64,000 bases of DNA from Methanosuratincola petrocarbonis. GTDB taxonomy: Archaea; Thermoproteota; Methanomethylicia; Methanomethylicales; Methanomethylicaceae. The stretch covers positions 442-64,441 of the forward strand of contig CP130488.1 of assembly GCA_030522375.1 (NCBI GenBank), given 5' to 3'. Below, one piece after another: positions 1-64,000 of the stretch; within the stretch, counting starts at the first letter, position 1, and each line of letters opens with the position of its first letter. The notes under the pieces were generated by a model. The model was not told the origin of the DNA. It searched no databases and saw only the letters and a program-made list of their open reading frames with translations. The position numbers and the translations under genes were made by a program.

Positions 1-1946
1 CCCTTTGAGAGCGGAGGGGACGGGTAGTACAGCAGCGCATTGTAGCTCAGGTTGGCGAAGCCTTCCACAGCCACGCCGTCTATCAGGAGGCTGATCCGGT
101 CCAAGTCGACCCCGTAATTGTCCCCGAATCCGGCATAGACCGAGTCGTTGTAAGGCACTATCATCGCCCTCTCCGGGTGGAAGTAGGATATCGTGGGCGG
201 GGTGAGGTCGACCGTGAACGCCCACGTAAACGCGTATGCGTTGCCAACCCCGTCGAAGACCTCGATTGTGGCGTTGTAAGTGCCCTCTGTGAAGTTGAAC
301 GGGGGTGAGAAGTCTATCGTCTCGCCGGTGCTCGTCGTCGCATCCCATGAATTGATCGTCAGGGCAGCGTGGGAAACCCCGGAAAGGGCGTCCGTGAAGT
401 TGGCCGAGACCCTCGGCCTGGGATCCCCAACATATGAACCATTCAGTGGCAGGTAGCCTGCGACTTCCGGCGGCGTCGTGTCCACAGCGAGCCTCAGCGC
501 GACCACGGCAGTGTTGCCCAGCACATCGCTGACTGTAGCCGTGAATGTGTGCCACCCGTCGTCGAGCGCGCCCGCCGTCGCGTTCACCCAAAGCCCCCTA
601 GGGGACGCTGCCCCGAGCGCTGGGCTGGTCGCCGTGCCGTCGACCCTCAGGACGACGCCCGACTGTGACACCTCCGAGACTGCATCCCTCACGAGGATCC
701 CCACCGTCGGCGTCGGGTCGCCCGTGAATGCCCCTTCCCTCGGCTCGGAATAGGCTAAGTAGGGAGGGTCGCCGTCGGCGGTGTACTCCCCCATCCTGTC
801 GACCTCCAGAGCCAGGGTTCCCGATGTGGCATCCCAAGACAGGGATCTGACTGGTCCGCCCGAGCTCTGACCAGTCCTGACGGCTGGGCTCCCGTCGAAA
901 AGCACTCCGGGCTGGTTCTGGAAGATGAGCCCATACATGCTTATGTTGGCTGGGGCATCAAGCGCCGGGAGGGCCGAGACATTGACCCCTACCGTCCCCG
1001 CGCCGATCCGGATGTGCTCGTTCAACCCGAAAAGCGAATTCGCCGTTACCGGGTCGCAGAGGTTCAGGGCGCCGGCATATGCTATCCTCGCAACCGGATC
1101 GCTCCCACTGAAGAACTCGAGCACGATTCCTGAAGCGTTTGTGAAGTCCCTTATCCCCCTCCAGTCTGTGGTCGCGCCCCCGAGCCTGGCGTCATAGTCT
1201 GCCGGCTGGAAGTTGAGTACTGCCGTGAAGGACGTAGAGTTCAAGGTGATTGTCGGTCCAGCGGGGACTTTAATGTGTATGGGAGTCGAGAATATGCCCT
1301 TGGAGAGGAACCCTGATGGCACCGTGCGGTTCACCAAGAATGCGTACCAGCCCGATCCGTCGGGATTTGTCCCGTTCGCCCAAGTCCCGTTCCCAGCCGG
1401 CGAGAGGCTCAGCGTCCCGTACCCGAGCCAGCCAAGGTCGATCTCGGCGGACACGTGGTCGTTCGGCGCCGAGATGTTCACGATCATGCTCAAGACAGAG
1501 CCATTGAAGTAGTAGTAGGTGGGGACTTGGGTAGATAACTGCTCGCCGGTCTTTGAGACGGCGTAGCATGAGACCCTTCCGAACGGCTGGACCAGCCTGA
1601 AGGCTGCCTGGGCAGTGCCAGCCGTCCCATTCGCGGTGATGTTGTAGGATCCTGTGGGGAGCCCGACCGTGGAGACGTTGACAGTCAACGTCCCGGAAGA
1701 CCCGATGACGAGTGAGTCATTCCTGAACACCTCGCCTGAAGGTCCTGCGACCGCGACCGAGACGAACGATGGGGGCCCTGACACGCTTATGGAGACTGTC
1801 TCCCCCGCTGAGTAGAGGGAGGTGTCTGAATCGACCGTGATCGTCAGCCCGGCTGACAAGACCGAGGGAGAAGCGCAGAGTATGAGCGCGGTTAATAGGA
1901 GAGCTGCGGCAGCCCCCTTAAAAATTCTCAAAACTTTACACCACAA
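1..1946 (-). CDS. Large secreted cell-surface protein, 5'-partial in window (C-terminus lies beyond position 1). It has an N-terminal signal peptide and repeated Ig-like ~95-aa modules ending in VDxTPP. The start is probably a TTG at 1944-1946 or 1929-1931.
   Basis: Reverse-strand translation is open from ~1946 to position 1 with no stop. The N-terminus reads (M)WCKVLRIFKGAAAALLLTALILCASPSVLSAG, a signal-peptide-like sequence. The body contains repeated motifs AVDTTPPEV, TVDLTPPTI and 'DALSGVSH', as in the 51775-56877 protein, plus many N-x-S/T sequons. It is absent from the ORF track only because it runs off the window edge. Confidence 0.7.
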   Translation of the reverse strand, partial: MWCKVLRIFKGAAAALLLTALILCASPSVLSAGLTITVDSDTSLYSAGETVSISVSGPPSFVSVAVAGPSGEVFRNDSLVIGSSGTLTVNVSTVGLPTGSYNITANGTAGTAQAAFRLVQPFGRVSCYAVSKTGEQLSTQVPTYYYFNGSVLSMIVNISAPNDHVSAEIDLGWLGYGTLSLSPAGNGTWANGTNPDGSGWYAFLVNRTVPSGFLSKGIFSTPIHIKVPAGPTITLNSTSFTAVLNFQPADYDARLGGATTDWRGIRDFTNASGIVLEFFSGSDPVARIAYAGALNLCDPVTANSLFGLNEHIRIGAGTVGVNVSALPALDAPANISMYGLIFQNQPGVLFDGSPAVRTGQSSGGPVRSLSWDATSGTLALEVDRMGEYTADGDPPYLAYSEPREGAFTGDPTPTVGILVRDAVSEVSQSGVVLRVDGTATSPALGAASPRGLWVNATAGALDDGWHTFTATVSDVLGNTAVVALRLAVDTTPPEVAGYLPLNGSYVGDPRPRVSANFTDALSGVSHAALTINSWDATTSTGETIDFSPPFNFTEGTYNATIEVFDGVGNAYAFTWAFTVDLTPPTISYFHPERAMIVPYNDSVYAGFGDNYGVDLDRISLLIDGVAVEGFANLSYNALLYYPSPPLSK

Positions 1947-2057
1947 AATAACAATTTGGTATTAATCTCTTTATACTTATCTGAAATTAGCAAAACTTGG
2001 AGGTCCAGACCTATTAAAGATGGTTTATGCGGGACTGGTCGCATGAGGGGGATTTGG

Positions 2058-27968: not shown

Positions 27969-27981
27969 AGGAGTGAGAAAT

Positions 27982-28953: not shown

Positions 28954-28987
28954 TAATTCTATGAGTATACAGAATGGGGAAATTCTA

Positions 28988-36290: not shown

Positions 36291-36305
36291 CAGGGTGGAA
36301 TTCGT

Positions 36306-37406: not shown

Positions 37407-37428
37407 TAAAAATTTTTAATTAATAAAT

Positions 37429-39163: not shown

Positions 39164-39164
39164 T

Positions 39165-40277: not shown

Positions 40278-40279
40278 AT

Positions 40280-41377: not shown

Positions 41378-41893
41378 ATTTAGCCACTTCCGTTCCACTA
41401 GTCTATTTTCCTTTAAGTTAAAAATCCGAATTACATCAATATAGAATGCCTAGTTTTGGTGTGATTTGACATTTAATGTGACATAACATCTTCCTTGGAG
41501 AAAAGTTTTCAGCCGCAAAGACTAAGAAATCGTTCCCCCTCCTTTGAATCTGGAATTCCTTTTTATGTAAAGCTTGGATGAACCACTCAGTTTAGGCATT
41601 GGCTTTACTTGGGTATTAGATGCGCCCCCTTCGTCTAGCGAACTATTTTTCGGGATCGAAAGAACAGCTAGGAAAATCAATCAAAACGAAAGATAAGGTG
41701 CCAATGTATGAAATCATCTGCAGTTCGTGGATGCGGTGTTGAGAACTTGGCAACTATCTCGAAACGCACATTTCCACTCGGAACGAAATCAGGGGCATGG
41801 ACGGATCAAATCACATCTGTAGGATCGAATTTACTTTAGAGGCATCGGTTATAAAGCCCGGCCCACAAAACCTTCTGCAATCAGGTGCCCGCG

Positions 41894-42646: not shown

Positions 42647-42661
42647 AAATACCGATCGAAC

Positions 42662-42913
42662 ATGCCAGAAGACGATTCGTCCATCGAATGGACCAGCCAG
42701 AGGCGACTCGAGCAGTACCTGGAGTTCTCAGAGAAGGAGGATTTCCCGCTCTTCGTCGTGATCGGGGTCGGCGGGACGCCCTCTTCCCCGGAGCGGATGT
42801 TCTGCCTGCCCCTCGACGAGGCGGACTCGCCGACAATCGACGCCTGCGTCTACCTCAACAGGGAGCGCGACCCTGCAAAGATGTTCTATTGGAAAGACGG
42901 GTGCCTTGAGTGA
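42662..42913 (+). CDS. Hypothetical small protein, possibly a remnant of the same decayed locus.
   Basis: The ORF is 83 aa and its composition resembles the neighbouring degraded gene. No motif was recognised. Confidence 0.2.
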   Translation: MPEDDSSIEWTSQRRLEQYLEFSEKEDFPLFVVIGVGGTPSSPERMFCLPLDEADSPTIDACVYLNRERDPAKMFYWKDGCLE

Positions 42914-43125
42914 GGACGCCTCGAGGAGAGCAGTTACTGCTGGACTCTTGTGCCTAACAACGGTCTATGCCTGACCAAAAAAGGCTCATAAATCCATGTA
43001 ATACAAACCTCCCAAAGAATCAGCCAACTTCAGTGCTCAATCCTCCCTTGCATTTTCAATACCGCGCAAGGCGCCAACTTTCATATATACTCTAAACCAC
43101 TACTTTGATCCGAGGAGTGCCCCAA

Positions 43126-44184: not shown

Positions 44185-44213
44185 TAATTTACTGTTGGCG
44201 GGCTGGTTCTCTG

Positions 44214-45152
44214 ATGAGGTTTCTGATCTCTGGCGCGGGCGGTCTGCTGGGCTCAAAGCTCGCCGAGGTCGCGATCGCCGCAGGTCATGTTGTCTTCGCC
44301 GGGTACTCCAGCGCCCCGCCTCCCTGCGGCACCCCGGTCCGCCTGGACCTGACCGACCCAGATTCAATCAAGAGCGCCCTGCGCGCATCCGCCCCCGACG
44401 TGGTCTTCCACTGCGCGGCTCTTACGGATGTGGACAGGTGCGAAGCTGAGAGGGAGCTCGCCCTGAGGATCAATGCGGAGGGGACCGAGCGGTTCGCGAA
44501 ATCCGCCTCCGAATTCGCCCCGCTCTTCGTCTACGTCTCCACCGATTACGTTTTCGACGGATCCCGCGGGATGTACTCCGAGTCTGACCAGGTCAGCCCT
44601 GTCAACTTCTACGGGTACACGAAGCTGCTGGGGGAGAGGCACGCCCTCTCCTGCTCGAAAAAAGCCCTGGTGGCGCGCACGAGCGTGATTTACGGCGCCT
44701 GCCCCTCGAGGGGGAAAGTGAACTTCGCCCTCTGGATAACCGAATCCCTCCTCCAATCGAGACCCGTCGCCCTGCTCACCGATCAGTGGGTCTCTCCGAC
44801 CCTGAACTCCAGCCTCGCCAGGATGCTCCTCGAAGCCGCTGAGCGCGGTCTGACTGGGGTCTATCACCTGGCAGGAGCCTCGCGCGTCTCCAGGTACGAA
44901 TTCGGCCTCTCCTTGGCCAGGGCGTTTGGCTTCAAGTTGGGACTAGGGGGGATCAACGGGGGAGGGGACTCGGCGCTTAAGCCGGCACTCATGTCTGACT
45001 TTGTCGGCAAGTGGGTCGCGAGGCGCCCCAGGGACTCTTCGCTGGACGTTTCGAAGGCTTCATCCACCCTCGACGAGAAGCCGCTCCCCTTGGGGCTGTC
45101 AATTGAAGAGTTTAAAAAGGAATACTTGCAGATAAAGCGTGGTGTTCCCTGA
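44214..45152 (+). CDS. rmlD: dTDP-4-dehydrorhamnose reductase.
   Basis: The N-terminus MRFLISGAGGLLGSKL is a Rossmann motif and YGYTK carries the catalytic Tyr/Lys. The gene is in the operon position. Confidence 0.75.
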   Translation: MRFLISGAGGLLGSKLAEVAIAAGHVVFAGYSSAPPPCGTPVRLDLTDPDSIKSALRASAPDVVFHCAALTDVDRCEAERELALRINAEGTERFAKSASEFAPLFVYVSTDYVFDGSRGMYSESDQVSPVNFYGYTKLLGERHALSCSKKALVARTSVIYGACPSRGKVNFALWITESLLQSRPVALLTDQWVSPTLNSSLARMLLEAAERGLTGVYHLAGASRVSRYEFGLSLARAFGFKLGLGGINGGGDSALKPALMSDFVGKWVARRPRDSSLDVSKASSTLDEKPLPLGLSIEEFKKEYLQIKRGVP

Positions 45153-45656
45153 ATGCTTCCTGGCATCGTTGTGAAGCCCCTCAGCCGGCATGTGGACGAG
45201 CGGGGAAACTTTACAGAGATCTTCCGATCGGACATGAAGGATATCTTGGGAGACGACACAATCGTCCAGTCGAACCTCTCCTATTCCTACCCGGGCGTGA
45301 AGAGGGCCTGGCACAGGCACGAGCGGGGTCAGGTCGACTACTTCGTCTGCATAGGTGGGGCAATAAAGATCTGCGCTTACGACGACGCGACCGCCGAGCT
45401 CGACGAGATCGTCTCCTCCGCAGCTTCCCTCCAGGTCGTGAGGATCCCGGGTCATTACTGGCACGGCTTCAAGGTGGTGGGGAGCGAGCCAGCCACGCTG
45501 GTCTACTTCACGACCAGGCTCTACGACTACAAGTCGCCTGACGAGCTGAGGCGCCCTTGGGATGACCCGACCGTTGTCCCGAAGTCGATAAACGGGAAGG
45601 TCAACGACCCCCGCGTCGGGAAGCCCTGGGACTGGGACTTCGTTCTGTACAAGTGA
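45153..45656 (+). CDS. rmlC: dTDP-4-dehydrorhamnose 3,5-epimerase (cupin).
   Basis: The protein is 167 aa. It carries the motif DERGNFTEIFR, a His-containing active-site region (WHRHE) and RIPGHYWHGF. Confidence 0.8.
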   Translation: MLPGIVVKPLSRHVDERGNFTEIFRSDMKDILGDDTIVQSNLSYSYPGVKRAWHRHERGQVDYFVCIGGAIKICAYDDATAELDEIVSSAASLQVVRIPGHYWHGFKVVGSEPATLVYFTTRLYDYKSPDELRRPWDDPTVVPKSINGKVNDPRVGKPWDWDFVLYK

Positions 45657-45670
45657 CGGGCGTGAGTCGC

Positions 45671-46672
45671 ATGCGGCTGCTGGTCACCGGGGGTCTTGGA
45701 TTCATAGGCAGCAACTTCATAAGGCTCTGCCTCCGGATCCCGGAGTGCGAAGTCATAAACCTCGACAACCTCTCATACGGGTCGAATGAGTCCAACCTGA
45801 GGGAGCTCGCCGGCGATCCCCGCTACACATTCGTGAGGGGAGACATCTGCGACCCAAACTCGATCCGCCGGGCTTTGGTCATGGGCGTTGAAGCGGTGGT
45901 CAACTTCGCCGCCGAGACCCATGTGGACAGGAGCATCTCCGACCCCCTTAGGTTCTACAGGACGAACGTGGGCGGGGTTCTGAACATCCTTGAGTGCATA
46001 AGGGAGTGCGGTCGCGACATCCGCTTTCTACAGGTAGGGACTGACGAGAGCTACGGCGACATCCTCGAAGGCTCCTTCTCAGAGGGCGATCGCCTGTCCC
46101 CATCCTCGCCATACTCTGCCTCGAAGGCTTCCGCGGACCTCTTTGTCCTCGCGTACCGACGCACCTATGGTTTGGATGCCCTGGTGACGAGGTGCACGAA
46201 CAACTTCGGCCCGTTCCAGTTCCCGGAGAAGCTTGTCCCCAAGACGATCATACGTGCGCTCAATGGGCTCAAGATACCTATTTACGGCTCCGGGAGGAAC
46301 GTGAGGGACTGGATCTTCGTCGAGGACCACTGCGAGGCGGTCATGGTTGCACTTTTGCGCGGGAAGCCCGGGGAGATCTATAATGTCTCTGCAGGGAACG
46401 AACTCGACAACCTCTCCCTGGTCAAGAAGATCCTCTGCATCCTTGGTCGTGGCGAATCGCTGATAGAGCATGTTGAGGACAGGCCCGGCCACGACCTACG
46501 TTACAGCCTTGACTCATCAAAGGCTAGAAGGGATCTGGGGTGGCATCCGCGCCACGGCTTCGATGAAGCCCTCAAAAAGACTGTGGAGTGGTATGTGAAT
46601 AACGAGTGGTGGTGGCGCCCGCTCGCTGACGAGAGGATGCTCAGCCCTGCGCCTTGGAAATTGAAATGGTGA
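45671..46672 (+). CDS. rmlB: dTDP-glucose 4,6-dehydratase.
   Basis: Motifs MRLLVTGGLGFIGSNFIR and YSASKASAD (YxxxK) are present. The TDE catalytic triad is represented by VGTDESYG. Confidence 0.85.
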   Translation: MRLLVTGGLGFIGSNFIRLCLRIPECEVINLDNLSYGSNESNLRELAGDPRYTFVRGDICDPNSIRRALVMGVEAVVNFAAETHVDRSISDPLRFYRTNVGGVLNILECIRECGRDIRFLQVGTDESYGDILEGSFSEGDRLSPSSPYSASKASADLFVLAYRRTYGLDALVTRCTNNFGPFQFPEKLVPKTIIRALNGLKIPIYGSGRNVRDWIFVEDHCEAVMVALLRGKPGEIYNVSAGNELDNLSLVKKILCILGRGESLIEHVEDRPGHDLRYSLDSSKARRDLGWHPRHGFDEALKKTVEWYVNNEWWWRPLADERMLSPAPWKLKW

Positions 46673-47092
46673 TTGCGAGTTACAAATGACTTTCTACAAT
46701 TGATGGTATGCTATCTTAAAGACGAGCGTTCTCGCAATTTTCATACCGATTGAAAAGCGCCGTTTGGTGCCTGTTGCGTCGCGTGCCGCTGCGAGTGCTC
46801 TTGGTTCGAGTTCGCTGTGCAATATTGAGATTTCTGGTCAAGAAATTTCTCCGAGTATCAGTCCTAGTCAACATATCCGACAAAGGCAAGGCGTCCCGCT
46901 TACTCGGCACTATCGAGCAACAAGCTGGGGAGATGGGGCATAGAGATGCCCCACTAGATGCCTCACTGGAGGGACGCCCTCCGCCGCTACCTGGAAGAGA
47001 AAGGGCACTTGAAGCCTCTTTCTGTCGCTTGATCCCTTCCGAAAGCCTCGGGCACCGTTCGTTTTTTAAGAGGGTCGCCCTCTACATTTTTT

Positions 47093-48130
47093 ATGGCGCA
47101 GCCCAAAGTCTCTGTACTGTGGGTCAACTACAACGGCATGCACATTCGGGACATCCTGCTGGAGTCCTTGCAAGCCATAGACAGTTTGAATTACGAAAAC
47201 TATGAGCTCATCGCAATCGACAACGGGTCCAATGACGGAAGCTACGTGCTTATACGCGACCAGTTCAAAAGGATGCGCTGCGAAAGGCGGTTGATCAGGC
47301 TCGACAGGAACCTAGGTTTCACGGGAGGGAACAATGTTGCCTACAGGGCACGATCGCCCGAAACAAAGTACGTCCTGCTCGTGAACAACGACGCCGTGGC
47401 TTACCCGGACAGCCTTCGCGAGATCGTAGAGAGGATGGACTTAGACAGCACGGTCGGAGCAGCCCAGGGCATCACGGTGGACTACTCCACAGGCGCCGTC
47501 GACACGGCGGGCGAGATGGTGGATGAGGTCTTGGAGGTCCATTCTCTTTTCAACGGCTGTCCGCCAGGATCCGTCAAGTCAGCTATCGAGATCACTTATA
47601 CCAATGGCGCCTTCGCAGTCTACCGCGTGTCGTCTGTACATGCGGCGCAGGGCGACCGACTATTCGACAATATCTTTGCATACTACGATGACAACCTCCT
47701 GGGGTTGAAACTATGGAACTGCGGCTTCAAGTCGGTCTCCTTCCCAGTCTTAGCCGCCAGGCACAGGAAGAGCTCCTCTTTCAGGAGATACAGCGAGGCA
47801 ATGATTTATTTGACGATAAGGAATTGCCTCTTTCTCAATGAGATAGCCAACAGCAGGTACCGCAAATTGAACCGGCTCTTCCCGCTGAAAATCATGCTGA
47901 AGCATATTGGTGGCAACCCTTCTGAGACTTTTTCCCTCTCTTTCAAGGCAGCAAGGGACGGCTTTTTAATGGGCAAGAAAACATTATCGGAGGAAGGCAT
48001 GGTGGACCTATACAAGGCGCCAATCGTGAGCCTTGAGCCCCCTCTGGCACTTTTGCGCCTCCTTCTTCCAGGAAGGTTCACAAGAGGGATCCTGGAAAGG
48101 AGAATAAAAGAAACAATCAATAGCTCATAA
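47093..48130 (+). CDS. Family 2 glycosyltransferase.
   Basis: The N-terminus VSVLWVNYNGMHIRDILLESL...LIAIDNGSNDGS matches the GT2 N-terminal fold, with a DxD-like YYDDN. Confidence 0.7.
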   Translation: MAQPKVSVLWVNYNGMHIRDILLESLQAIDSLNYENYELIAIDNGSNDGSYVLIRDQFKRMRCERRLIRLDRNLGFTGGNNVAYRARSPETKYVLLVNNDAVAYPDSLREIVERMDLDSTVGAAQGITVDYSTGAVDTAGEMVDEVLEVHSLFNGCPPGSVKSAIEITYTNGAFAVYRVSSVHAAQGDRLFDNIFAYYDDNLLGLKLWNCGFKSVSFPVLAARHRKSSSFRRYSEAMIYLTIRNCLFLNEIANSRYRKLNRLFPLKIMLKHIGGNPSETFSLSFKAARDGFLMGKKTLSEEGMVDLYKAPIVSLEPPLALLRLLLPGRFTRGILERRIKETINSS

Positions 48131-48191
48131 ATAACATGAATCCAAATTGTTTCAACCAAACTTAAAATATAAGTTTTACTAATTCTCTGCC

Positions 48192-50136
48192 ATGTTGAAT
48201 CCGCTTGCACGGTTTTTCCCTAGACTCTACGCTTACATCCCGATCTTTTCGAGCATAGGATTTTCAGGCGCAATTCTCTTATTGGCAAAAATCTCTCAGG
48301 CGGCCTCGATGGACTGGTACGCCCTTATCGCGATTGACTATCTTGTTTGGGTAACGGCTGCATTCTCTTTCATTTCAATATATCTTGACTACTCCCGTTT
48401 TTACAATGAATATGGATTCGGTTCGACGCTTTCTCTGAATGTAATCGCCCTTGCCTTGATAATTCTGGGCAGGTTTTCCTCAATCATCCACAGCATGATC
48501 TATACTGGTTTCAAAACCCCATTGATCGGCGGCTGCGCCGCAAGTGCCGAATCTGTTGCCCTGGCTTCCCCGGTCATTTTAGGTGGAATTCTAGCATTCG
48601 TGGTGACAATCGCCCATGCTCTGTTGAAGAAGCCTCTGGTGCTTGCTCACGGGCCAAGCTTTGGCTCGCTCCACGCCTCCATAAAGATTCTTTTTTCAAG
48701 AGCAATTGAATTTATTTCAAGTCATTACCTCGCATTCGCTTTTTTGACATGCTTCATCTTCAGGCTAATCCCAGAGTTGCGTTACCCAGATTTTCCAATC
48801 GGCTACGACACGGTTGAATACATAGCATACCTTCGGGACTATGCACTTTCGCTCAACCCATTCCAGACCTACAACGGAAGGAATGCCCCGCCACTCATGC
48901 CAATCCTCATGACGCCTTTCTTGGCGGCGACGGATCCATGGAACCTCATGAAGGCATGGGGCCCTCTGATGTGCGGTCTTTCTGGGCTTCTCTCGGCTCT
49001 GGTCGCCAGGCGGGTCTTCGGGTTGAGCCGGGGAGTTTCGCTTTTGGCTGGGCTCGTGGGGGGGTTGAACATTATTGCCATCGGCTCTACCCAACAATGG
49101 CACAGGCACATGCTCGGGGTGGTTTTCCTCCTCGCATACATCGCTTCAAATGCCGGCAGTTCGAACATATTCAGGCTTACAACGCTGTTTGGCATGGCGA
49201 TGGCTTACGAGCCCACTGCCGCCATATCGGTCGCCCTCTCGACCTATCATGCTGCCAAGTCCAAAAAAAGGCGTCCGGCTTGCATACATTGCCGTCCTAG
49301 CCCTCTCCTTAATCTTGCTGATCTGGTACATGCGTAGGCCAATCGTGACTAGCCCTATCACAGGCATAAGCGTTGCCGGGATCATTGATTCGGGCTTTCC
49401 CAACACAACAGTCGACCTGATGGTCTGGTGCTGTGTTTTCCTGCTCCCCCTCGCCCCTGCACTCCTGGTTCTCAAGCGAATGCCAGGCGGCTACAGGTTC
49501 TTGTTGCTCATACTCGCGTTGGCAGTAATCCAGCCAGCCCTGATGCCATACACATCGCTGCTCGAGCAGCACAGGTGGGCTTCGATGCTCGTATTCGCCC
49601 TAATCCCTGCCGCCACAGCTGGATACATCATGATCGATCGGAAGTTGCTGAGCGCCTTTTCGGTAGTCGCGCTGCTCATAGGCGCAGTCTATGTAGTCGT
49701 CCCGAATAGCAACTTTTACCTGTCGCCCCTCTCAGGAGCTTGGGAGTACCGATATCAGCAGGGATTTCCTTGGGAGCTAGAACCTGCCTTGAGCGCATAC
49801 GAATACCAGAACCTGAGGGAGATCTCTGCGAAGTTGCAGGAAATAGACGGACCAACTCTAATGTCGATCGGTGTTTACCCTTGGATTCACTTGGACATAC
49901 GCAATCCGAAAAACTTGTTCTGTTTGGGCTATGAGCCCTGCATAGACGATGTTGCAAGATATATGAATCGCAGCGGTGCCAGGAGTGTTTATGTAGTAAC
50001 CGGTGTTGACTTGGATAAAAACATGAAGAATATTCTTAGTCTGAACTTGACATATTCTGAGCTGATCGTGCAAATCAAGTTGGAAACCATTGTACACGGA
50101 TCTCGTGCTCTCTACCATGTATATCTGGAAGAGTGA
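48192..50136 (+). CDS. Large polytopic membrane protein with a C-terminal soluble domain, a GT-C-like glycosyltransferase candidate. It is split into ORFs 48192-49337 and 49075-50136 by a +1 frameshift in an A7 run (49263-49269).
   Basis: Removing one A gives the continuous reading ...STYHAAKSKKGVRLAYIAVLALSLILL.... It has more than 12 TM segments. No WWDYG oligosaccharyltransferase motif was found. Confidence 0.5.
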
Positions 50137-50775
50137 AAACATCAAATTTTTTAGCTATATTTTTAATTTTTCCATAAAAATTTTATACTTAAAAAAATTC
50201 ATTAAGTGCGCTGAATATAATCTTATGTCGATTAAGCAATTTCCCGTTATGTTACAGGTAGAATTTTCATCAAAAACATTCCATTAGCCATATTAATTCC
50301 AAGCTTGGCAGATCTTCAGGCTTATTCGAATCCCAATTTGTACTCCAAGACTCTGCGGCCATCTCGACTTTATCTTTAGCTCAGGCGCCGCAGGTTGCCC
50401 TTTTTTGTTCAGCCACTCTTTCTTGCTTGTGCTTCATTCTTTTCCAAACCAAGTTAAAATTATTAAATTAGTTAAATTTATTAACTAAATTATAATTAAA
50501 TATCCTGGCAGCGAGTTCCTTTCAGGAGGCTAGAAAATGGCTAATGGTCCAAATTTGCTGTTTGAGGGCAATTGCCTTCCTGAGGACGAGTGGTTCCCGC
50601 CCGAGTTGCTACATCGTTTCGGCTATCCTTTTTTGCCGATTCGCGAGTCGCAGTATGAGCCGTGGGGCTAGGGCCCGTGGGCTGAAGAGATCGATTACGA
50701 GTTGGGAGGGCTGATCGAGGATAGTGTTGACCGCAAAAGGGGCGATCCTCCGAAGACATCGACTATCGTGGGGCC

Positions 50776-51480
50776 GTGGAGGATCCGCTGGCCTACTATG
50801 TCCCATACCCGTCTGACGCCTCGAGCCGCAAAGGGTTTGGGATATATTTCAGGGTCAAAAAGATGCTCAGCGACTTCAAGCGGTTCCATTCCAAGCTCCC
50901 GAGGTTCATCCCGCCCGATTTCTCCTGGCGCGTCTATGTGACGACCGTGTTCTGGCACGAGATGGCGCACCATGTGGTCCAAGATGCCTGGCTGATCCAG
51001 GAAGGGAACAAGAGCCAGCGTTCCTCCTCCTCTCCTTCCTCTTCATCCCCTTCAGACTACTCCGGGTACACTCTCATGCCCCGCCAGGACGAGGAAGGGT
51101 TCTGCGAGTACATGGCGTTCACGGCGGTCGAGAGGAACTTGGGTCTGCCCCCGAAGGTAATTCGCAACATCCCGATGCGGCACATGCTTTACGCCAGGAT
51201 CTTCTACCCGCATCCAAGGCCGAAGATCCCCCTGCTCCCCGGGAGGTCGCCGATGAAGCCCGATTACTTCCGCATATACGCCCTCTGCGCCCTGTACGAT
51301 CACTGGGGGAGGGGCTCGGATCCCGTCTATCGCCCTTGCGTCACCAGGACCGCCTCGGGAGCCGTCGGCCCGCTGTGGAACCCGCTGTGGGAAGCCCACC
51401 AGCGCGGAGCCCCGGTTATAACATTGGGGCCGGGCGAAGGGGACCTCATCTGGGACAGGATCTTCGTGACAGAGCGTTGA
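50776..51480 (+). CDS. Hypothetical protein with an HExxH motif (WHEMAHH), a putative metallopeptidase-like protein. Upstream frames (50537-50775) look like decayed 5' sequence.
   Basis: The ORF is 234 aa and has a GTG start. The HEMAHH motif follows a hydrophobic stretch. The near-repeats EEIDYELGGLIED and EDIDYRGAVEDP occur in different frames upstream. Confidence 0.3.
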   Translation: MEDPLAYYVPYPSDASSRKGFGIYFRVKKMLSDFKRFHSKLPRFIPPDFSWRVYVTTVFWHEMAHHVVQDAWLIQEGNKSQRSSSSPSSSSPSDYSGYTLMPRQDEEGFCEYMAFTAVERNLGLPPKVIRNIPMRHMLYARIFYPHPRPKIPLLPGRSPMKPDYFRIYALCALYDHWGRGSDPVYRPCVTRTASGAVGPLWNPLWEAHQRGAPVITLGPGEGDLIWDRIFVTER

Positions 51481-51730
51481 TATCCCCCCATGGCCAGCGC
51501 CTCGCCCAGGCAAGGAGCGTCGAGGAGATCGTCTATATCGAGCCCGCTCATGATCCCATAAAGCGCATCTACCAAGTGATCAGGTCCCCCTCAGACATTC
51601 GACCACCTTGAGGGTGGGATGTTGGGGTCTATGGCGTGGTGGGGCAGAGAGGGGACGGTCTCGAGCCTGGGCGCGGCGTCCCGCATTCGAAGTTGGCTCA
51701 AATAAAAACTAATCAAATCCATATCATAAT

Positions 51731-51774
51731 TTTTAAAAACTGTGAATACTATATTTTTATTGCAGTTGATTGAT
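51731..51774 (+). promoter_or_regulatory. AT-rich promoter-like region (ttttaaaaa / tactatatttttattg) immediately upstream of the giant surface-protein gene.
   Basis: Local GC collapses here. The TATA-like element lies ~20-25 nt before the ATG at 51775, consistent with a leaderless archaeal mRNA. Confidence 0.3.
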
Positions 51775-54700
51775 ATGGATAATTTTTCTCGAAATCTTAG
51801 ACTTTTATGCATTGCTCTTCTTGTTATCGTCGCCTTGTCCGCTTCTTCCCCATCGCCTCTCAAGGCAGGCACCATAGTCGTGGAGGACTACGGGTATTGG
51901 GATGCGGATGGGGTCTACCATAGTTCCTCCACCCCGATCCAGTCCGCAATAAATTCGGCATCATCGGGGGATGTGATCCTGCTGGTGGGCGCCTCTTACA
52001 CAGAGAATGTTGAGGTCAACAAGACAGTCACCATCCGCGGGGCATCTTCCCATGTGATTAGCCCTGCCAACCCGAGCCTGCCCACCTTCAACATCTCTTC
52101 AGCCAACTCGATTCTGTACGATCTGTATGTGAATGGAGGTAGCGTCGCCTTCGCAGTGTGGGGCAACTCCATAACACTCACAAACAACACCGCCATAGGT
52201 GGCGACGTCGGCTTCTACGTGGCGCCTTTTAATACTGGCAACTGCACCCTCACCAACAACAGGGCTTTCAACTCCACCACTACGGGATACCAAGTGTGGA
52301 GCCCAAACAACACCCTCATAGGCAACAACGCCACCTGGTGCAACTACTCCTTCTCGGTCTACAACGACAACACCCTCATAGGCAACCTGGCTGATCAATG
52401 CGAGCACGGCTTCTTTATCTATCAAGGCAGCTCAACACTCACAAACAACACCGCCATAGGTGGCGACGTCGGCTTCTACGTGGCGCCTTTTAATACTGGC
52501 AACTGCACCCTCACCAACAACAGGGCTTTCAACTCCACCACTACGGGATACCAAGTGTGGAGCCCAAACAACACCCTCATAGGCAACAACGCCACCTGGT
52601 GCAACTACTCCTTCTCGGTCTACAACGACAACACCCTCATAGGCAACCTGGCTGATCAATGCGAGCACGGCTTCTTTATCTATCAAGGCAGCTCAACACT
52701 CACAAACAACACCGCCATAGGTGGCGACGTCGGCTTCTACGTGGCGCCTTTTAATACTGGCAACTGCACCCTCACCAACAACAGGGCTTTCAACTCCACA
52801 TACGCCGGCTACTATATCTCTAGCATAAACAACACCCTCAACTCAAATGAGGCTTCTTGGGGAGCGGGGGTCGGCTTCTTCCTGAACCAGTCGATTAACA
52901 ACACCGTCACTATGAATTATGCCTCAGGCAACTCGGGAGGAGGCGTCCGGCTGGAGAACTGCTCCGGCAACGCATTGACATGGAACGACTTTATAAATCC
53001 CCTCAACTCTTACGACGACTCCCTCAACCTGTGGGATTGGAACTACTTCAGCGACTACTCGGGCGTCGACAGGGACGGCGACGGGGCGGGCGACACCCCC
53101 TACAGCGTGCCTGGGGGCTCCAACCTTGATCTGCACCCGCGGATCCATGACAATGACCTCCCAACCGTCGACTCCGTCTTGCCTGCGAACGGGTCCTTCC
53201 ACCCTTACGTCAGCACGATCTCAGCCCAGTACTTTGATACGACCTCCAATGTCAACTTCTCGCTGTGCAGGCTCATCCTGGACAATGTGGATGTAACTCT
53301 GAACGCCTCGTTTGCCACCTACAGCATGTCATTCTCGGGCACCCTGGGTGAGGGCACCCACTCCGTAAGGATGTATCTCGAGGACTTTTATGGGAACGCG
53401 ATGTGGCACAACTGGTCATTTGGAGTCGACGCAACACCCCCCTCCATCCATCCCCTGTCCCCTACGAACGGCACTCTTGTCGCGGATAGCACCCCGGCAC
53501 TGTGTTTTTGCTACTCCGACAGCCTCTCAGGGATCTCCCCCCTGTCCGTAAGGCTGTTCCTCGACGGGGTCAATGTCACTTCTTCTGCGTCGATCAATGG
53601 CACCATCGCATGCTACCTGCCTTCATCCCCTCTAAGCGACGGGTCGCACAACGCCACGATCTCCGTTGCCGACGCCGTAGGCAATAACGCCTCCTCGATC
53701 GTCTTCTTCACCGTGGATGCCACTCCGCCTTCAATTTCCCTGATCTCGCCCACGAACTCCGCCTACCCATCAACCCCTCTCATCAACTCATCAGTTACGG
53801 ATGCCCTCTCCGGCGTCCACACGGTCCTCGCAGAGATCGACGGCTCCTACAACCTCACCCTCGCGCTAGCAGGGGGCTTCTACACCGCCCTTCTCGACCT
53901 GCCCGACGGCCACCACTACGTCCGCATCATAGCCAACGACACCGTAGGTAACACTGCGTCCAGCCCCTCGGTCCACTTCACCGTCGACACCACCCCGCCC
54001 TCGATTGCGATAGCCTACCCCCAGAACTTGACCTATGGTTGCTCGTCAATGAAAATAAATGCCTTGGTCTCGGACGCCTTAAGCCCAGTCCACACCGTCC
54101 TCGCAGAGATCGACGGCTCCTACAACCTCACCCTCGTCCTCGATGACGACTTTTATGTCTCTGCAGATGTCGAACTCGCTGACGGCGTGCACTGCGTCCG
54201 GGTGATCGCAAATGACACGCTTGGGAATGTCGACAGCACCACGCTGGTGTACTTCACTGTGGACACGACCCCTCCGTCAATTGATATCAATCACCCGATC
54301 CCCTCATCTCTGTACTATGGCTCAGCCGAAATGCTGATAAACGCCTCTGTCTCGGATGCCCTCTCCGGCGTCCACACGGTCCTCGCAGAGCTGAACGGGG
54401 CTCAGAATGTCACCCTGCTTCCGGAAGGCGCCTTCTTCGTCTCGAAAGTCACCCTCGCCGAGGGCAATTATACCCTGATGATCATAGCCAACGATACGGT
54501 GGGCAACACTGCCCAGGCTGATTATTGCGGCGTCTTCTACATAGACCTCACACCGCCTTCTATCGCTGTGGAGGCGCCTGCCAACGCCACCTACGCCTCA
54601 AATCAAATAACCATTAACGCCTCCGCATACGATCCTATCTCGGGCACCCATACCGTGATCGCCGAGGTCGACGGGTCGCATAACTACACGATGCTCGTGA

Positions 54701-56877
54701 GCAGCCCACACTACACCGCCCTTCTCGACCTGCCCGACGGCCACCACTACGTCCGCATCATAGCCAACGACACCGTAGGTAACACTGCGTCCAGCCCCTC
54801 GGTCCACTTCACCGTCGACACCACCCCGCCGTCTGTAACCATCAACGCCCCTTCAGACTCGGCTGTCTACGCAAGCAGCGAGGTGCTGATAAACGTCACA
54901 GCGACCGACAGCCTGTCCGCAATCCACGCCGTGGTCGCAGAGCTGAACGGTGATCAGAACGTCACCCTGCTTCCGGACGGTACTGCATTCGTAGGATCGT
55001 GCTCCCTTTCAGATGGAGCGCACGTCCTCCGCATTTACGCGAACGACACCGCCGGAAACACCGACTCCACCCAGTCCGTAAGCTTCGCAATAGACACTGC
55101 GCCACCCTCGGTCTCGATCATCTCTCCGGCAAGCGGCTCGTCCTACCCGTTCTTGCCAAAGATAGGTGTGGTGGCTGACGATGCCTTCTCCGGCGTCCAC
55201 ACCGTCCTCGCAGAGATCGACGGCTCCTACAACCTCACCCTCGCGCTAGCAGGGGGCTTCTACACCGGATCTATACCGCCTCCGCTCCCAGACGGCCACC
55301 ACTACGTCCGCGTGATAGCCAACGACACCGTAGGGAACACTGCTGTCGAGTCTTCTGCATTCTTGCTAGATGCCTCGCCACCAACGCTCACCGTCACTTC
55401 TCCCTCGCCCGCATCGTGCTCGGGGAATGGCTCAGTCACCATATCCGCAACATTCTCGGACGGGGTTTCTGCCGTGTCAGTTGCGAGCATCAGTCTGGAC
55501 GGGACCGAGCTGAGGCCCAGTGCGTCCGTCACGGCTACCGATCTATCAATAGAGGTCGCGCTGAGCGACGGCCAGCATGACCTGTCAATCACAGTCACGG
55601 ATGCGCTCGGGAACTCTGCGACCGCCTCTTTCCGATTCTGCGTCGACACCTGCCCTCCCGTCCTCGCGTCAACCTCGCTTGAAAACGGGACCTTCGTAAG
55701 AGACCAGAATGTCACCATCGACTTCGCGTTCCAGGACGCGGTCTCTGGGGTAGACGGATCGACCGCCTCCGCCTCGATCGACGGCTATCCGGCGGCTCTG
55801 GTCGTAGAGGGAACGCCAGGGGGCGCCAACCTCTCCTTGTCTGCCCTCCTCGATGAAGGCGAGCATCTGATCGAGGTTTCCGTCGCCGACGCTGCCGGGA
55901 ACCGCGCCACCGCCGCCCTAAGGATAACCGTCGACCTATCCCCGCCCCAAGTGGTCGCCCTACAGCCCGAAGCAGGGACGGTTGTCAGCGGGTTCTCTGT
56001 GATATCGGCTGAGTTCATTGATGACCATGGGGTTGACCCGCGCTCGGTGAGGGTTTTTGTAGATGGACTGGACTTGACGACCTTCTGTTTTGCATCCCCG
56101 TCTGGGTTCAGCCTCAACACGGTGCTTCCAGATGGGGAGCACCGTGTGCGAGTGGCGGCAGGCGACCTGGCTGGCAATATCGTATACGAAGAATGGTCCT
56201 TCACTATAGATGCCACGCCCCCCTACGTCTCCATTCTCTCCCCCTTGAACAACACTGCCACCAACAACACCCCCCTGATCTCCTTCTCATTCCACGACAG
56301 CGTTTCCGGAATCAACGCCTCATCTGCATCCCTCTTCCTCGACGGCGCTGATCTGACCCAATACGCCAACATCTCGAGCTCCGCGATCTCGTACGCGCCA
56401 TCCCTGCCACTCTCAGAAGGTATGCATCAAGTGCTCTTCGAGATCAGCGACCTCGCTGGAAACACCAAATCTGTCATGGTCGTTTTTGCAGTGGACACTA
56501 TCCCGCCAGCCCACCCCACCTCCGCCTTGTCAAACTACTCGGCTGTATCGGCTGGCCATTTCCAGTTCACTGCCTCGCTGCCAGGGGAGGCAACCCCGGT
56601 GAATCTCTCCCTGTATGTCGATGGCGTTGACTGCACGCCGAGCGCAGTAGTGGAAGGCGATCGGATCATCTGTACCATCGATCTGACCGAGGGTATCCAC
56701 AGTATTACGCTTGAAGTGGAGGACGCAGCTGGCAATGCCGCCTCCTCGACCTGGATCGTCAATGCAGTATCCCCGACATTCGGATCGGGTCTTGGTCAGC
56801 TCGCTATAGCCGCTGCTGTCGTGGTAGCTGCCGCAATGGGGGCGGTCGCATTGCTGCGGCTGAGGCACAAGAAATAG
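51775..56877 (+). CDS. Giant secreted surface (S-layer or adhesin-like) glycoprotein. It has a signal peptide, NosD-like parallel beta-helix repeats, ~14 Ig-like VDxTPPS modules and a C-terminal TM anchor with a basic tail.
   Basis: The N-terminus is MDNFSRNLRLLCIALLVIVALSASSPSPLKA. PbH1-type repeats read NNTAIGGDVGFYVAPFNTGNCTLTNN. Modules of ~95 aa are each bounded by F(T)VDTTPPS. The C-terminus is LAIAAAVVVAAAMGAVALLRLRHKK. N-x-S/T sequons occur at ~5 per 87-aa repeat. Confidence 0.8.
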   Translation: MDNFSRNLRLLCIALLVIVALSASSPSPLKAGTIVVEDYGYWDADGVYHSSSTPIQSAINSASSGDVILLVGASYTENVEVNKTVTIRGASSHVISPANPSLPTFNISSANSILYDLYVNGGSVAFAVWGNSITLTNNTAIGGDVGFYVAPFNTGNCTLTNNRAFNSTTTGYQVWSPNNTLIGNNATWCNYSFSVYNDNTLIGNLADQCEHGFFIYQGSSTLTNNTAIGGDVGFYVAPFNTGNCTLTNNRAFNSTTTGYQVWSPNNTLIGNNATWCNYSFSVYNDNTLIGNLADQCEHGFFIYQGSSTLTNNTAIGGDVGFYVAPFNTGNCTLTNNRAFNSTYAGYYISSINNTLNSNEASWGAGVGFFLNQSINNTVTMNYASGNSGGGVRLENCSGNALTWNDFINPLNSYDDSLNLWDWNYFSDYSGVDRDGDGAGDTPYSVPGGSNLDLHPRIHDNDLPTVDSVLPANGSFHPYVSTISAQYFDTTSNVNFSLCRLILDNVDVTLNASFATYSMSFSGTLGEGTHSVRMYLEDFYGNAMWHNWSFGVDATPPSIHPLSPTNGTLVADSTPALCFCYSDSLSGISPLSVRLFLDGVNVTSSASINGTIACYLPSSPLSDGSHNATISVADAVGNNASSIVFFTVDATPPSISLISPTNSAYPSTPLINSSVTDALSGVHTVLAEIDGSYNLTLALAGGFYTALLDLPDGHHYVRIIANDTVGNTASSPSVHFTVDTTPPSIAIAYPQNLTYGCSSMKINALVSDALSPVHTVLAEIDGSYNLTLVLDDDFYVSADVELADGVHCVRVIANDTLGNVDSTTLVYFTVDTTPPSIDINHPIPSSLYYGSAEMLINASVSDALSGVHTVLAELNGAQNVTLLPEGAFFVSKVTLAEGNYTLMIIANDTVGNTAQADYCGVFYIDLTPPSIAVEAPANATYASNQITINASAYDPISGTHTVIAEVDGSHNYTMLVSSPHYTALLDLPDGHHYVRIIANDTVGNTASSPSVHFTVDTTPPSVTINAPSDSAVYASSEVLINVTATDSLSAIHAVVAELNGDQNVTLLPDGTAFVGSCSLSDGAHVLRIYANDTAGNTDSTQSVSFAIDTAPPSVSIISPASGSSYPFLPKIGVVADDAFSGVHTVLAEIDGSYNLTLALAGGFYTGSIPPPLPDGHHYVRVIANDTVGNTAVESSAFLLDASPPTLTVTSPSPASCSGNGSVTISATFSDGVSAVSVASISLDGTELRPSASVTATDLSIEVALSDGQHDLSITVTDALGNSATASFRFCVDTCPPVLASTSLENGTFVRDQNVTIDFAFQDAVSGVDGSTASASIDGYPAALVVEGTPGGANLSLSALLDEGEHLIEVSVADAAGNRATAALRITVDLSPPQVVALQPEAGTVVSGFSVISAEFIDDHGVDPRSVRVFVDGLDLTTFCFASPSGFSLNTVLPDGEHRVRVAAGDLAGNIVYEEWSFTIDATPPYVSILSPLNNTATNNTPLISFSFHDSVSGINASSASLFLDGADLTQYANISSSAISYAPSLPLSEGMHQVLFEISDLAGNTKSVMVVFAVDTIPPAHPTSALSNYSAVSAGHFQFTASLPGEATPVNLSLYVDGVDCTPSAVVEGDRIICTIDLTEGIHSITLEVEDAAGNAASSTWIVNAVSPTFGSGLGQLAIAAAVVVAAAMGAVALLRLRHKK
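52180..52800 (+). repeat. Perfect tandem 261-bp (87-aa) repeat inside the surface-protein gene: two identical copies and a partial third.
   Basis: Segments 52180-52440 and 52441-52701 are identical by eye. The third copy begins at 52702 and diverges at ~52800. Antisense track ORFs 52099-52425 and 52432-52686 translate identically. Confidence 0.9.
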
Positions 56878-57168
56878 CCCCCCTTTTTTCCGTCCGGGAG
56901 CGAGCCCTCCGGCAAGAAGCCTGCTGGGGGCGCTCCCCATCGCCTTCCGGTTCCAGGTTGCCGTGCCGAGCGCTCACGCGCCTCCTTTTAAACTGCCTGG
57001 CGTCCCATTCATGCATCCTGTAAGTGTGCTTCGCCTCTCAGGCCCACCGGGGATAGGGTGCAAGGCTCCGCGATTTGCTTGAGCCCCCGCAAGGGATCCT
57101 CCCTCAATTCTGCCCTCCTCCTTCTGGACCGGCGCCTGCTTTAAGAGACCCTCTCGTTCATTGTCCTT

Positions 57169-62101: not shown

Positions 62102-62925
62102 ATGTATTATCCAGAAAACATTTTTGCTTAAATTTGTTTCCTATGTTATGTTTAGATCCCTATCCCAAAAGCGCAGAGCGTTACCTGTCCAACAAGAGGT
62201 GCAGCGAAGCGCCTGCCCTATAGTTCGCCTCCCCTCCATCCACCTGGAGAAACATCCCCGGCAGCCGCGCCGCCACTTGAGCGCGAGGGGATGTGCGGGC
62301 ACCTCGTAGATGAGGCGGTAAGCAAGCCCGCGTCGTTGAGACACATACGCGCCAAGATCTCAAAAAGCATTTGCCCTGTCCGGGCTCATTACATGTTGTC
62401 TGTAGGGCTTCTGTAGATGCCGAGGGAAGGCGTTTGGTCGCCTCGACTCCTGGCGACCTGCCTAATCCAACCCGTCGTCGTTGCCCCTGCTAGGGCAGTG
62501 GATGGATTGAAGGTAAGCAAGCCTGAAGGTTTACTCGAGAGCCTTCACAACTTTGAGCAGGAATCAGGCCGCCCTCCTTGTTCTCCTAGTCCTTGCAATC
62601 GGAGCGATCTTTGTGAGCTGTGCCGGATACGGCTCCTTCCTGAATGACCCGCTGACGCTTTAGCGCTGTCGACATGCCGCCTGGCTCGAGCACCTCCAAC
62701 TCATGCCGATCCTCTCAATAAGCCTTCCAGGGCGCCCACTGCGGTTGTTTATATAAGCCGAAAGCCCCTTTCACTTGCAAATGCTGCCCTATGTCAACGG
62801 CGTAGCGCGCCAAATTGACCTGGAACGAATTTTTTGGGAATCTATAAATACGAAAAAAAATTATTTTTTTTATAATCTATAGAGGTGCTTCCAAATTCCA
62901 GACTGTAAAAAATCTATTTTTGCCT

Positions 62926-64000
62926 GACTCTCGCGCTACTGATCGCCTTCCAGCTGCCGCCCGGCGCTGTTGCCGCCCCTGCTTCTCTCCAGTACCACAG
63001 CCCAATCGAGATCGTAGGCAACTCTGCCTTCACCTCAGCCAACGGCGTGGTCGGGGGCAGCGGGACAGCCAGCGATCCCTACATAATCGAAGGTTATGCT
63101 ATAAGCGCAAACCTAACCCCGGGGATCGCCATATCAAACACTAACGCCTACTTCGTGATCAGGAACTGCAACATACAGGGCACTTGGCTCTACTCAGGGA
63201 TAATGCTTCAGAACGCCACAAACGGGAGGGTGGAGAACAACACCATCACGGGGTGCCTCGACGGGATTATGATCTACTATTCCTCGAAGATTGACGTCCT
63301 GAACAACTCGGTCTCAGACAGCTCCTACGGCGTCCGGTCCGAGTATTCGGGGAACAACACGATCTCAGGGAACACTTTCACTGACAACGCAATAGGCATC
63401 TTCCTTTCGTCAACAAGCAGTGGTAGCAACGTCTCTTATAATGTGTTTACGAACAGCTCGCAGGGAGTCTACCTCTTCTCGTCAGGCAGCAACACCGTCT
63501 CAAACAACAGGTTGACCTACACTGACGAAGGGATCTCCCTCTTCTACTCGGACAACAACGCTGTCAAAAACAACCTGCTCGTCAGCACAACCGAGGGCAT
63601 CTCCCTCTTCTTCTCCTCCAACAACATAGTGACTGGGAACACCATAGTCGAGGGGCCGAAATCGATCAATGTTGATCCCCTATCGACCGGAAACACTATC
63701 AACAACAACACGTTCTTGGACGAGCTGGTCAAGCAGAACGCGTCCCTTTCACTGCAGTCATCCGCAGCCTCAACGGGCGTGGGGACCGCGGTGACGCTCA
63801 GCGGTTCGCTGGTTCCCGCCCAGGCTGGAACAGTCTCGATCTACTTCTCGATCAACGGATCCGCTGCGACCTTCCTAGCGAATGCGACGCTCTCCGGGGG
63901 TTCCTTCTCCAAAACATTAAACCTTAGCCAGGTAGGCACATACTCGTTTTATGCCTACTGGGCTGGCAACGATAACTACAACCCTGCGACCTCCCCGACG
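62926..64000 (+). CDS. Secreted parallel beta-helix (NosD/PbH1-repeat) surface protein, 3'-partial (continues beyond the window). The start codon is unclear: no in-frame ATG/GTG/TTG, and a TTG lies at 62920 in the +1 frame.
   Basis: The frame is open from 62914 to the window end. A signal-like region reads LTLALLIAFQLPPGAVAAPA. Repeated ...NNTI(T/S)GN... beta-helix turns occur with very many N-x-S/T sequons. An AT-rich TATA-like region lies at 62840-62900. Confidence 0.65.

Follow-up and report, generated by a model that had tools for sequence, protein, structure and literature searches.

Three modular surface proteins in a 64-kb stretch of Methanosuratincola petrocarbonis: domains shared in pairs, a strain-variable repeat gene and a missing start codon

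Introduction

Methanosuratincola was among the first methanogens to be cultured outside the Euryarchaeota. A stretch of 64,000 nucleotides from M. petrocarbonis (assembly GCA_030522375.1, contig CP130488.1, positions 442 to 64,441 of the forward strand), analysed here as a whole and referred to as the window, carries three genes for putative surface proteins rich in sequons (N-x-S/T): gene 1, which is cut off by the start of the window, the giant gene 2, and gene 3, which runs past the window end. A first-pass annotation, made from this sequence without database searches, had read the three as a clustered, lineage-specific expansion of modular envelope proteins that exchange cassettes. Are they such a family, or does their resemblance have another source? 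We found that the genes share domains only in pairs, and their likeness most likely reflects common domain superfamilies and a common architecture rather than recent paralogy or traffic of cassettes between genes. Of the three, only gene 2 shuffles repeats and varies by strain.

All three open reading frames (ORFs) proposed by the annotation are present, from 1946 or 1931 to 1 on the minus strand, at 51775-56877, and open from 62909 past the end of the window. In the databases, sequences related to genes 2 and 3 are listed under the source name Candidatus Methanosuratincola petrocarbonis, and the window DNA recurs in many assemblies, including the GCA_0396306xx-9xx series and the 1.49-Mb chromosome OZ337362.1.

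Domains are shared between pairs of genes

The Pfam model Big_13 (PF19077, gathering cut-off 27 bits) matched gene 1 with 46.1 bits over the part inside the window and 61.7 bits at full length, and gene 2 with 228 bits over nine stretches, with no match in gene 3. The models NosD (PF05048, cut-off 23.6 bits) and Beta_helix (PF13229, cut-off 25.9 bits) matched gene 2 (76.8 and 55.2 bits, respectively) and gene 3 (110.1 and 99.5 bits), with no match in gene 1. In the resulting layouts, a NosD/Beta_helix region is followed by ~12 Big_13/Big_7/Big_3_3 modules in gene 2 and by Big_3_5 in gene 3. The shared building blocks of the first-pass annotation thus hold in pairs, as Big_13 modules in genes 1 and 2 and as NosD-type helices in genes 2 and 3, but none is common to all three: the modules with VDxxPP ends and DALSGV motifs that had been attributed to the group are missing from gene 3, the immunoglobulin-like (Ig) domains of which are Big_3_5, and gene 1 has no beta-helix.

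The modules of genes 1 and 2 were cut at their VDxxPP ends (12 in gene 2 and two in the visible part of gene 1) and compared all against all, the comparison by which the annotation had proposed to tell homology from mere compositional bias. Modules of ~92 aa from the two genes are 30-35% identical and share DxxSGV-type motifs (eight in gene 2, one in gene 1); the whole proteins match by BLAST with an E value of 4e-26, and the modules align by hhalign over 91 columns with 99.6% probability (E value 4e-24). The uncorrected BLAST score of 154 bits lies far above the 23 ± 3 bits of 100 shuffles and agrees with the profile match, and the homology of the gene 1 and gene 2 modules is therefore true rather than compositional. 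Between the beta-helices of genes 2 and 3, identity is 27% (pairwise E value 3e-4) and the score is 57.8 bits against 26.8 ± 3.9 bits for shuffles, which points to a relationship that is real but distant.

Beyond these two links, little aligns. The Big_3_5 domains of gene 3 reach an hhalign probability below 2% against the modules of genes 1 and 2, genes 1 and 3 have no significant alignment to each other, and the N-terminal region of gene 1 (~370 aa) finds no match in gene 2. Between the genes, blastn returned one trivial match of 29 nt at 86% identity, which joins genes 1 and 2, and none with gene 3. The same combination of domains also occurs in Methanococcus, Methanococcoides, Thermoplasmata, Asgard archaea and Bathyarchaeia, and an identity of 30-35% is ordinary for modules of the widespread Big_13 family. 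In a single pattern search of the genome contigs for gene 2, which falls short of a genome-wide census of paralogs, none of the 52 pattern matches was confirmed.

A lineage-specific paralog family that swaps module cassettes would account for the homologous ~92-aa modules that genes 1 and 2 have in common, VDxxPP and DxxSGV motifs included, for the NosD-type helices in both genes 2 and 3, and for the presence of one architecture in three genes within 64 kb. We nevertheless consider such a family very improbable, given that protein identity between the genes is only 27-35%, that the short match of genes 1 and 2 is the sole one at the DNA level, that no domain can be aligned between genes 1 and 3, that the domains are widespread in archaea, and that the three genes follow different patterns of conservation: gene 1 is conserved, gene 2 is hypervariable or absent, and gene 3 diverges at the background rate. 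Of the cassette exchange envisaged by the annotation, the part that survives is the exchange inside gene 2, described below, and not exchange between genes.

One architecture and an excess of sequons

Each of the three proteins begins with a hydrophobic, signal-peptide-like segment and ends, according to a hydrophobicity scan, with a single hydrophobic helix followed by a basic tail. No NCBIfam model of an archaeosortase-type C-terminal signal (PGF-CTERM and relatives) matched any of them at E ≤ 0.01. The domain calls and the signal and anchor features agree with the modular envelope proteins of the first-pass annotation, and the three are probably separate type-I membrane-anchored surface proteins built from a domain toolkit common in archaea. 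The polypeptides would leave the cell through a Sec-type signal peptide, their sequons would be modified outside the cell, and the C-terminal helix with its basic tail would keep them in the membrane. M. petrocarbonis has been described as aggregating cocci with a 1.54-Mb genome, the type strain of which lyses in 0.01% SDS (PMC12244365); aggregation and lysis of this kind fit a proteinaceous envelope and adhesive surface proteins.

The richness in sequons noted by the annotation was borne out, with 3.1, 3.5 and 3.3 sequons per 100 aa in genes 1, 2 and 3, respectively, against 0.41 in the 48 other ORFs of the window, an eight-fold excess. Relative to composition-matched shuffles, the excess is clear for the window part of gene 1 (20 sequons vs 5.6 ± 2.0) and for gene 2 (60 vs 25.5 ± 4.2). 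Four alignment columns of the Ig module of gene 2 carry sequons again and again, and much of the gene 2 count was therefore inherited by duplication. From these sequon densities, N-glycosylation of the three proteins is predicted as probable.

Several points weigh against a reading of all three genes as glycosylated surface proteins and of gene 2 as a shuffler of repeats. The 12 sequons of gene 3 are no more than its composition predicts (10.0 ± 2.3 in shuffles), because the composition of the beta-helix is rich in Asn, Ser and Thr. Many of the NxT motifs in the beta-helices belong to the Asn-ladder repeat motif and may face inward, and the window ORFs that were scanned yielded no oligosaccharyltransferase STT3/AglB. 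Lacking a canonical start codon, gene 3 might not be made at all, and a perfect 261-bp tandem repeat in gene 2 could in principle be an assembly artefact.

Gene 2 diversifies through its own repeats

The ATG assigned to gene 2, at 51775, agrees with the N-terminus of its allele P0122. Its head is a right-handed parallel beta-helix, and phmmer searches of sequences in the Protein Data Bank (PDB) gave weak matches of genes 2 and 3 to the solved NosD structure 7o0y. Within the head lies the 261-bp unit, which Tandem Repeats Finder (TRF) reports as 2.4 copies at 100% identity. The loci L011-L014 have one copy fewer, and more distant gene 2 alleles have independently duplicated units of their own. 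The modules of the stalk exceed the cut-offs of the NCBIfam models NF033510 Ca_tandemer (110 bits, cut-off 50) and barrel_OmpL47 (117 bits, cut-off 40). Two pairs of non-adjacent modules, otherwise 60-75% identical, share near-identical tracts: 123 nt at 99% identity (53880-54002 and 54711-54833) and 88 nt at 98% (53800-53887 and 55180-55267). Such tracts amid modules of lower identity mark intragenic repeat expansion with concerted evolution, and gene 2 very probably changes through tandem duplication of its repeats and gene conversion between them.

In this adhesin-like protein, the stalk of 12-13 Ig modules would hold the beta-helix head away from the cell. Pectate lyases and many glycanases fold as right-handed parallel beta-helices, and a different reading of the heads of genes 2 and 3, as enzymes acting on extracellular glycans (polysaccharide lyases or glycosidases) rather than as binding modules, draws on this fold, on a weak Pel9A-like_beta_helix match in one split allele fragment and on the glycan-synthesis genes that adjoin gene 2. 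This reading appears quite unlikely, since the Pfam matches are to the non-catalytic NosD and Beta_helix repeat models and no family of lyases or hydrolases exceeded its threshold, and since a helix of recently duplicated, identical units is more in keeping with a scaffold than with a fixed active site.

Gene 2 lies in a strain-variable island next to a glycan block

An exact look-up of the gene 2 allele found no record in public assemblies. Among its relatives that bear the same species label, identity is 91, 83 and 54%, and the 54% allele (locus L021) occupies the same place, between rml-like genes and an NTPase gene. Within the species, the flank at 57155-64000 is 99.3-99.97% identical. The complete chromosome OZ337362.1 has this flank at 99.3% identity, matches the window at 79% over 46.8-51.4 kb and lacks 51.4-57.15 kb, including gene 2, and in L011 and L012 the segment 50.5-52.6 kb is 88% identical to the window. 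Divergent alleles and absence of gene 2 beside a near-identical flank therefore place gene 2 in a hypervariable island. No tRNA gene was detected anywhere in the window, and there is thus no obvious integration site for the island.

At L021, additional genes separate the gene 2 allele from the NTPase gene (13756-17761 of that locus), among them those for a trypsin-like protease, a PLD-like protein, a Na/H exchanger and a toxin-antitoxin pair of the ParE/RHH type, which fits an island that gathers accessory and mobile-type genes.

Adjoining gene 2 is a block of glycan-biosynthesis genes. The GC content is ~0.6 across the window except at 28-42 kb, where it falls to 0.34-0.47 (27973-41377). This low-GC part encodes a UDP-Glc dehydrogenase, a family 2 glycosyltransferase (GT2), a DUF354 protein, a UDP-GlcNAc 2-epimerase, three GT1/GT4 enzymes, an acetyltransferase and a DegT aminotransferase, and it is followed by rml-like genes for dTDP-sugars and another GT2. 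Its UDP-GlcNAc 2-epimerase is the second in the window, after one at 5450-6523. The low-GC glycan block was probably acquired horizontally. With a variable gene 2 beside this probably imported block, strains would differ in their surface.

The ~1.7 kb that separate the last GT4 gene from the rmlA-like gene (41400-43100) hold only short ORFs of at most 141 aa. Here the GC content passes from the low-GC island back to ~0.6, and the segment may be a junction or a remnant region.

The island resembles the cell-wall island of Haloquadratum (PMC4535781), which is likewise variable among strains, combines surface-glycoprotein genes with envelope and glycan genes, and is diversified by recombination. 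The Haloquadratum island belongs to another phylum and habitat, however, whereas the variable protein here comes from one giant beta-helix/Ig gene that undergoes conversion within itself. In contrast to the divergent locus L021, with its ParE/RHH, PLD and trypsin-like genes, the window's island yielded no mobile-element genes. The Haloquadratum island has been read as a means of escape from viruses (PMC4535781), and by analogy a selective reason of some kind may underlie the variability of gene 2. Gene 2 itself is a possible strain marker and a plausible virus receptor or aggregation factor.

Gene 1 encodes a conserved all-beta protein, probably of the envelope

The window covers the N-terminal part of gene 1, whose start is TTG at 1931 or, alternatively, TTG at 1946 (visible part 643-648 aa). 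In the loci L005-L010, the gene is complete with 803 aa and identical over the window part. Near-full-length relatives in Methanosuratincola and Methanomethylicaceae are 57-100% identical and, one 779-aa partial call aside, 801-803 aa long. The module ends read VDTTPP and VDLTPP, and DALSGV occurs in one module.

The N-terminal region, to which no Pfam family corresponds, has only 68 relatives among 1.84 billion representative proteins, in which it is joined to NosD helices or to PKD, Ig or beta-propeller domains. It contains a conserved motif, LGGxTTDWxxIxDFTN...NLCD (alignment A3), and by these sequence comparisons is a rare, unnamed set of domains. With an alignment of nine sequences, AlphaFold2 (AF2) modelled the region at a pLDDT of 41, which rose to 95.8 once distant relatives were added; this confident model is all-beta and suggests a fold of beta-sandwiches. 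Foldseek matched the model against the PDB only to generic multi-sandwich structures (TM 0.2-0.26), and a sequence search of the PDB with gene 1 gave no match.

Could gene 1, alone or with a partner, form or anchor the S-layer of Methanosuratincola, as part of a lattice rather than as an adhesin? Its constant length across genus and family, its signal peptide, 22 sequons and C-terminal transmembrane (TM) anchor, and cell lysis in 0.01% SDS, as expected of a protein envelope (PMC12244365), all speak for such a role. The structural matches, on the other hand, are generic single Ig or macroglobulin sandwiches, among which domains of complement C3 and alpha-2-macroglobulin score better, and no S-layer family HMM matches the protein. 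Full-text literature searches for S-layer or tomography together with Methanosuratincola returned nothing. The archaeal Ig-like S-layer glycoproteins (Haloferax volcanii csg, 7ptp; Nitrosopumilus SLP, 8c8k; Sulfolobus SlaB, 8qox) share only a generic, single-sandwich structural likeness with the window proteins, which differ from them in having no family match at the sequence level and no PGF-CTERM or archaeosortase signal. Gene 1 is thus a possible S-layer component, but a lattice role is a tentative idea with the odds against it.

Gene 3 has lost its start codon

As the first-pass annotation had remarked, gene 3 has no canonical start in frame, and a TTG lies one frame off at 62920. The signal-peptide-like segment begins at 62921, and the first in-frame ATG, GTG or TTG after the TAA at 62906-62908 is the GTG at 63047. 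As a sequencing error, the hidden indel that the annotation suspected at 62910-62930 did not hold: six other assemblies, one of which is the 1.49-Mb chromosome, have exactly the same 220 bases there, and this identity in independent assemblies therefore excludes a read error. The difference at the start is a substitution and not a single indel beside the TTG at 62920. In alignment A1, the sister species reads TTG TGC CTA where the window reads TTT TGC CTG, and the sister protein P0002 is annotated with the start MCLTLALL. As far as the aligned sequences tell, the ancestral TTG start of gene 3 has mutated (G to T) to TTT, a change now fixed in the species.

The sister species is 82% identical to the window at the DNA level over 9.3 kb of synteny and 75% identical in the gene 3 protein. 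The 75%-identical relative was considered as a divergent allele of gene 3 and rejected, since the whole 9.3-kb syntenic flank is 82% identical and it belongs to another species. The assembly GCA_039630705.1 holds both L010, 99.9% identical to the window species, and L020, from the 82%-identical sister; this metagenome-assembled genome (MAG) looks mixed.

Further upstream, the window has an in-frame GTG at 62885 that runs into the TAA after seven codons. A hand reading of the alignment places a GTG in the sister species twelve codons upstream, in frame and with no stop, which would yield MFPILNCKKFYLCLTLALL, a more typical signal peptide. On hand re-reading, the GTG-to-TAA frame of the window would stem from two compensating 1-nt indels, which the gap-free alignment A1 does not display. 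Automatic annotation has placed four different gene 3 starts on the same DNA (464, 476, 478 and 509 aa); in other strains, the frame counts 509 codons from ATC 62912 to the stop. A scan for promoters and terminators of the bacterial type in the region upstream of gene 3 yielded no useful information.

Gene 3 is thus either initiated non-canonically or recently silenced. A pseudogene inactivated in this species by the loss of its start codon would explain why no ATG, GTG or TTG precedes the signal-peptide-like segment and why the upstream GTG ends at a TAA, where the sister species keeps both its TTG and an open upstream frame, as well as the disagreement among the automatic starts. Yet the frame is intact in all six strains with synonymous differences only (507 codons, TGC 62921 to the stop), within-species diversity being too low for a test of relaxed selection. 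Moreover, the body of the gene is under constraint, with a dN/dS of 0.19 relative to the sister species and divergence at the background rate, a conserved TATA-like element is retained upstream, and a non-canonical start such as ATC 62912 or CTG 62924 is available. We regard inactivation as a serious minority possibility. Translation of gene 3 by initiation at ATC or CTG, or by re-initiation after the 7-codon upstream ORF, is possible. The bolder proposals, that gene 1, as an all-beta-sandwich protein with an N-terminal domain trio restricted to the lineage, is the S-layer or anchor glycoprotein of the Methanosuratincolia and, separately, that gene 3 is a functional surface protein translated with no canonical start codon and held under purifying selection in all sequenced strains, are, taken together, rather doubtful.

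Relation to known systems

The three proteins are ordinary archaeal adhesin-like or envelope proteins, of a kind already well known. The closest likeness is to the adhesin-like proteins of the methanogens Methanobrevibacter smithii and Methanosphaera stadtmanae (PMC11532034), which combine a membrane anchor, a right-handed beta-helix and repeated Big/Ig domains, as genes 2 and 3 do, and which also form multi-copy, strain-variable surface repertoires; gene 1, having no beta-helix, falls outside this three-part build. By analogy, genes 2 and 3 may be adhesive. The likeness has limits: in the adhesin-like proteins, the TM helix is usually N-terminal and the Big domains mostly escape Pfam (PMC11532034), whereas the window proteins have a C-terminal anchor with a cleavable-looking signal peptide, and their Ig modules are clear Big_13/Big_7 matches. 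The hosts also differ, being gut Methanobacteriota in one case and a thermophilic oil-field member of the Thermoproteota in the other.

NosD, a maturation factor of N2O reductase (7o0y), has the same type of periplasmic right-handed beta-helix repeat as genes 2 and 3, but these have no nos gene context and carry Ig stalks and a TM anchor. In the model for true NosD proteins, NCBIfam TIGR04247 (cut-off 300 bits), genes 2 and 3 score only 63.8 and 78.9 bits, respectively. The stalk of gene 2 follows the same logic as the long tandem stalks of giant RTX-type adhesins, and the matches of its modules to Ca_tandemer and OmpL47 recall the Ca2+-stabilised repeat adhesins and Big_13-Big_3_3 stalk proteins of bacteria. 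In contrast to these, gene 2 is archaeal, is anchored by a TM helix and has no type-I secretion signal; Ca2+ binding by its modules can be suggested by analogy.

The window thus supplies three candidate envelope proteins of Methanosuratincola. Variable surface islands and modular adhesin-like proteins are a familiar pattern, and what the present set offers is help with annotation and with the typing of strains, not a new mechanism.

Table 1. Features of genes 1, 2 and 3 and their surroundings in the 64,000-nucleotide window
Feature	Position	Strand	Description or basis
Gene 1	1..1931	-	First 643 aa (full length 803 aa); start codon TTG 1931; translation
Gene 1, Big_13-type modules	1..752	-	468-752 and 195-467 complete; 1-194 is the start of a third
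Gene 1, mature N-terminal region (~370 aa)	747..1853	-	Beta-sandwich array, no Pfam family
Glycan-biosynthesis block	27973..48130	+	Pfam; low-GC part at 28-42 kb
Strain-variable island with gene 2	46788..57154	.	Within-species alignment
Gene 2	51775..56877	+	1700 aa; signal peptide, NosD-type beta-helix, 12-13 Ig modules, TM helix, basic tail
Gene 2, right-handed parallel beta-helix head (aa ~33-460)	51871..53154	+	Pfam NosD/Beta_helix; NCBIfam para_beta_helix
Gene 2, beta-helix unit of 261 bp (87 aa) in tandem	52173..52955	+	Two copies 100% identical, third 62%
Gene 2, stalk	53158..56769	+	12 Big_13/Big_7 modules of ~92 aa ending in VDxxPP and a degenerate 13th
Gene 2, C-terminal TM anchor and basic tail	56779..56874	+	...LLRLRHKK; hydrophobicity scan
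Gene 3, upstream region	62838..62908	+	Conserved TATA-like element GGAATCTATAAATAC at 62838-62852; invariant columns in alignment A1
Gene 3, beta-helix and two Big_3_5 Ig domains	62909..64000	+	Open from 62909; 3' end past the window
Gene 3, lost start codon	62918..62920	+	TTT here, TTG in the sister species

Other genes in the window

An ABC-transporter ATPase on the minus strand (2879-3818) is divided between two ORFs that overlap, of 173 and 175 aa. GCA_039630665.1 has this split too, and at least four other assemblies have an intact gene of 312 aa, so that the frameshift is a polymorphism among strains or else an error common to both sequences. The mechanosensitive-channel gene (4046-5362) is intact here, with 438 aa, and is split in GCA_039630735.1 and GCA_039630765.1 into pieces of 237-240 and 193 aa. 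At 18205-20999, an archaeal ATPase gene (ATPase_2 and DUF234, 18725-20227) is flanked by two DUF1616 pieces, with the C-terminal-type piece first (18205-18687, profile positions 153-307) and the other after it (20010-20999, profile positions 2-119); sequons are likewise frequent in the 160-aa DUF1616 piece (3.1 per 100 aa). Finally, a MoxR-type cluster at 22182-27968 comprises a protein with CarboxypepD_reg and DUF4129, a DUF4350 protein, an AAA_3 MoxR ATPase and a DUF58 protein, and a VWA protein lies apart from this cluster, at 11145-12167.

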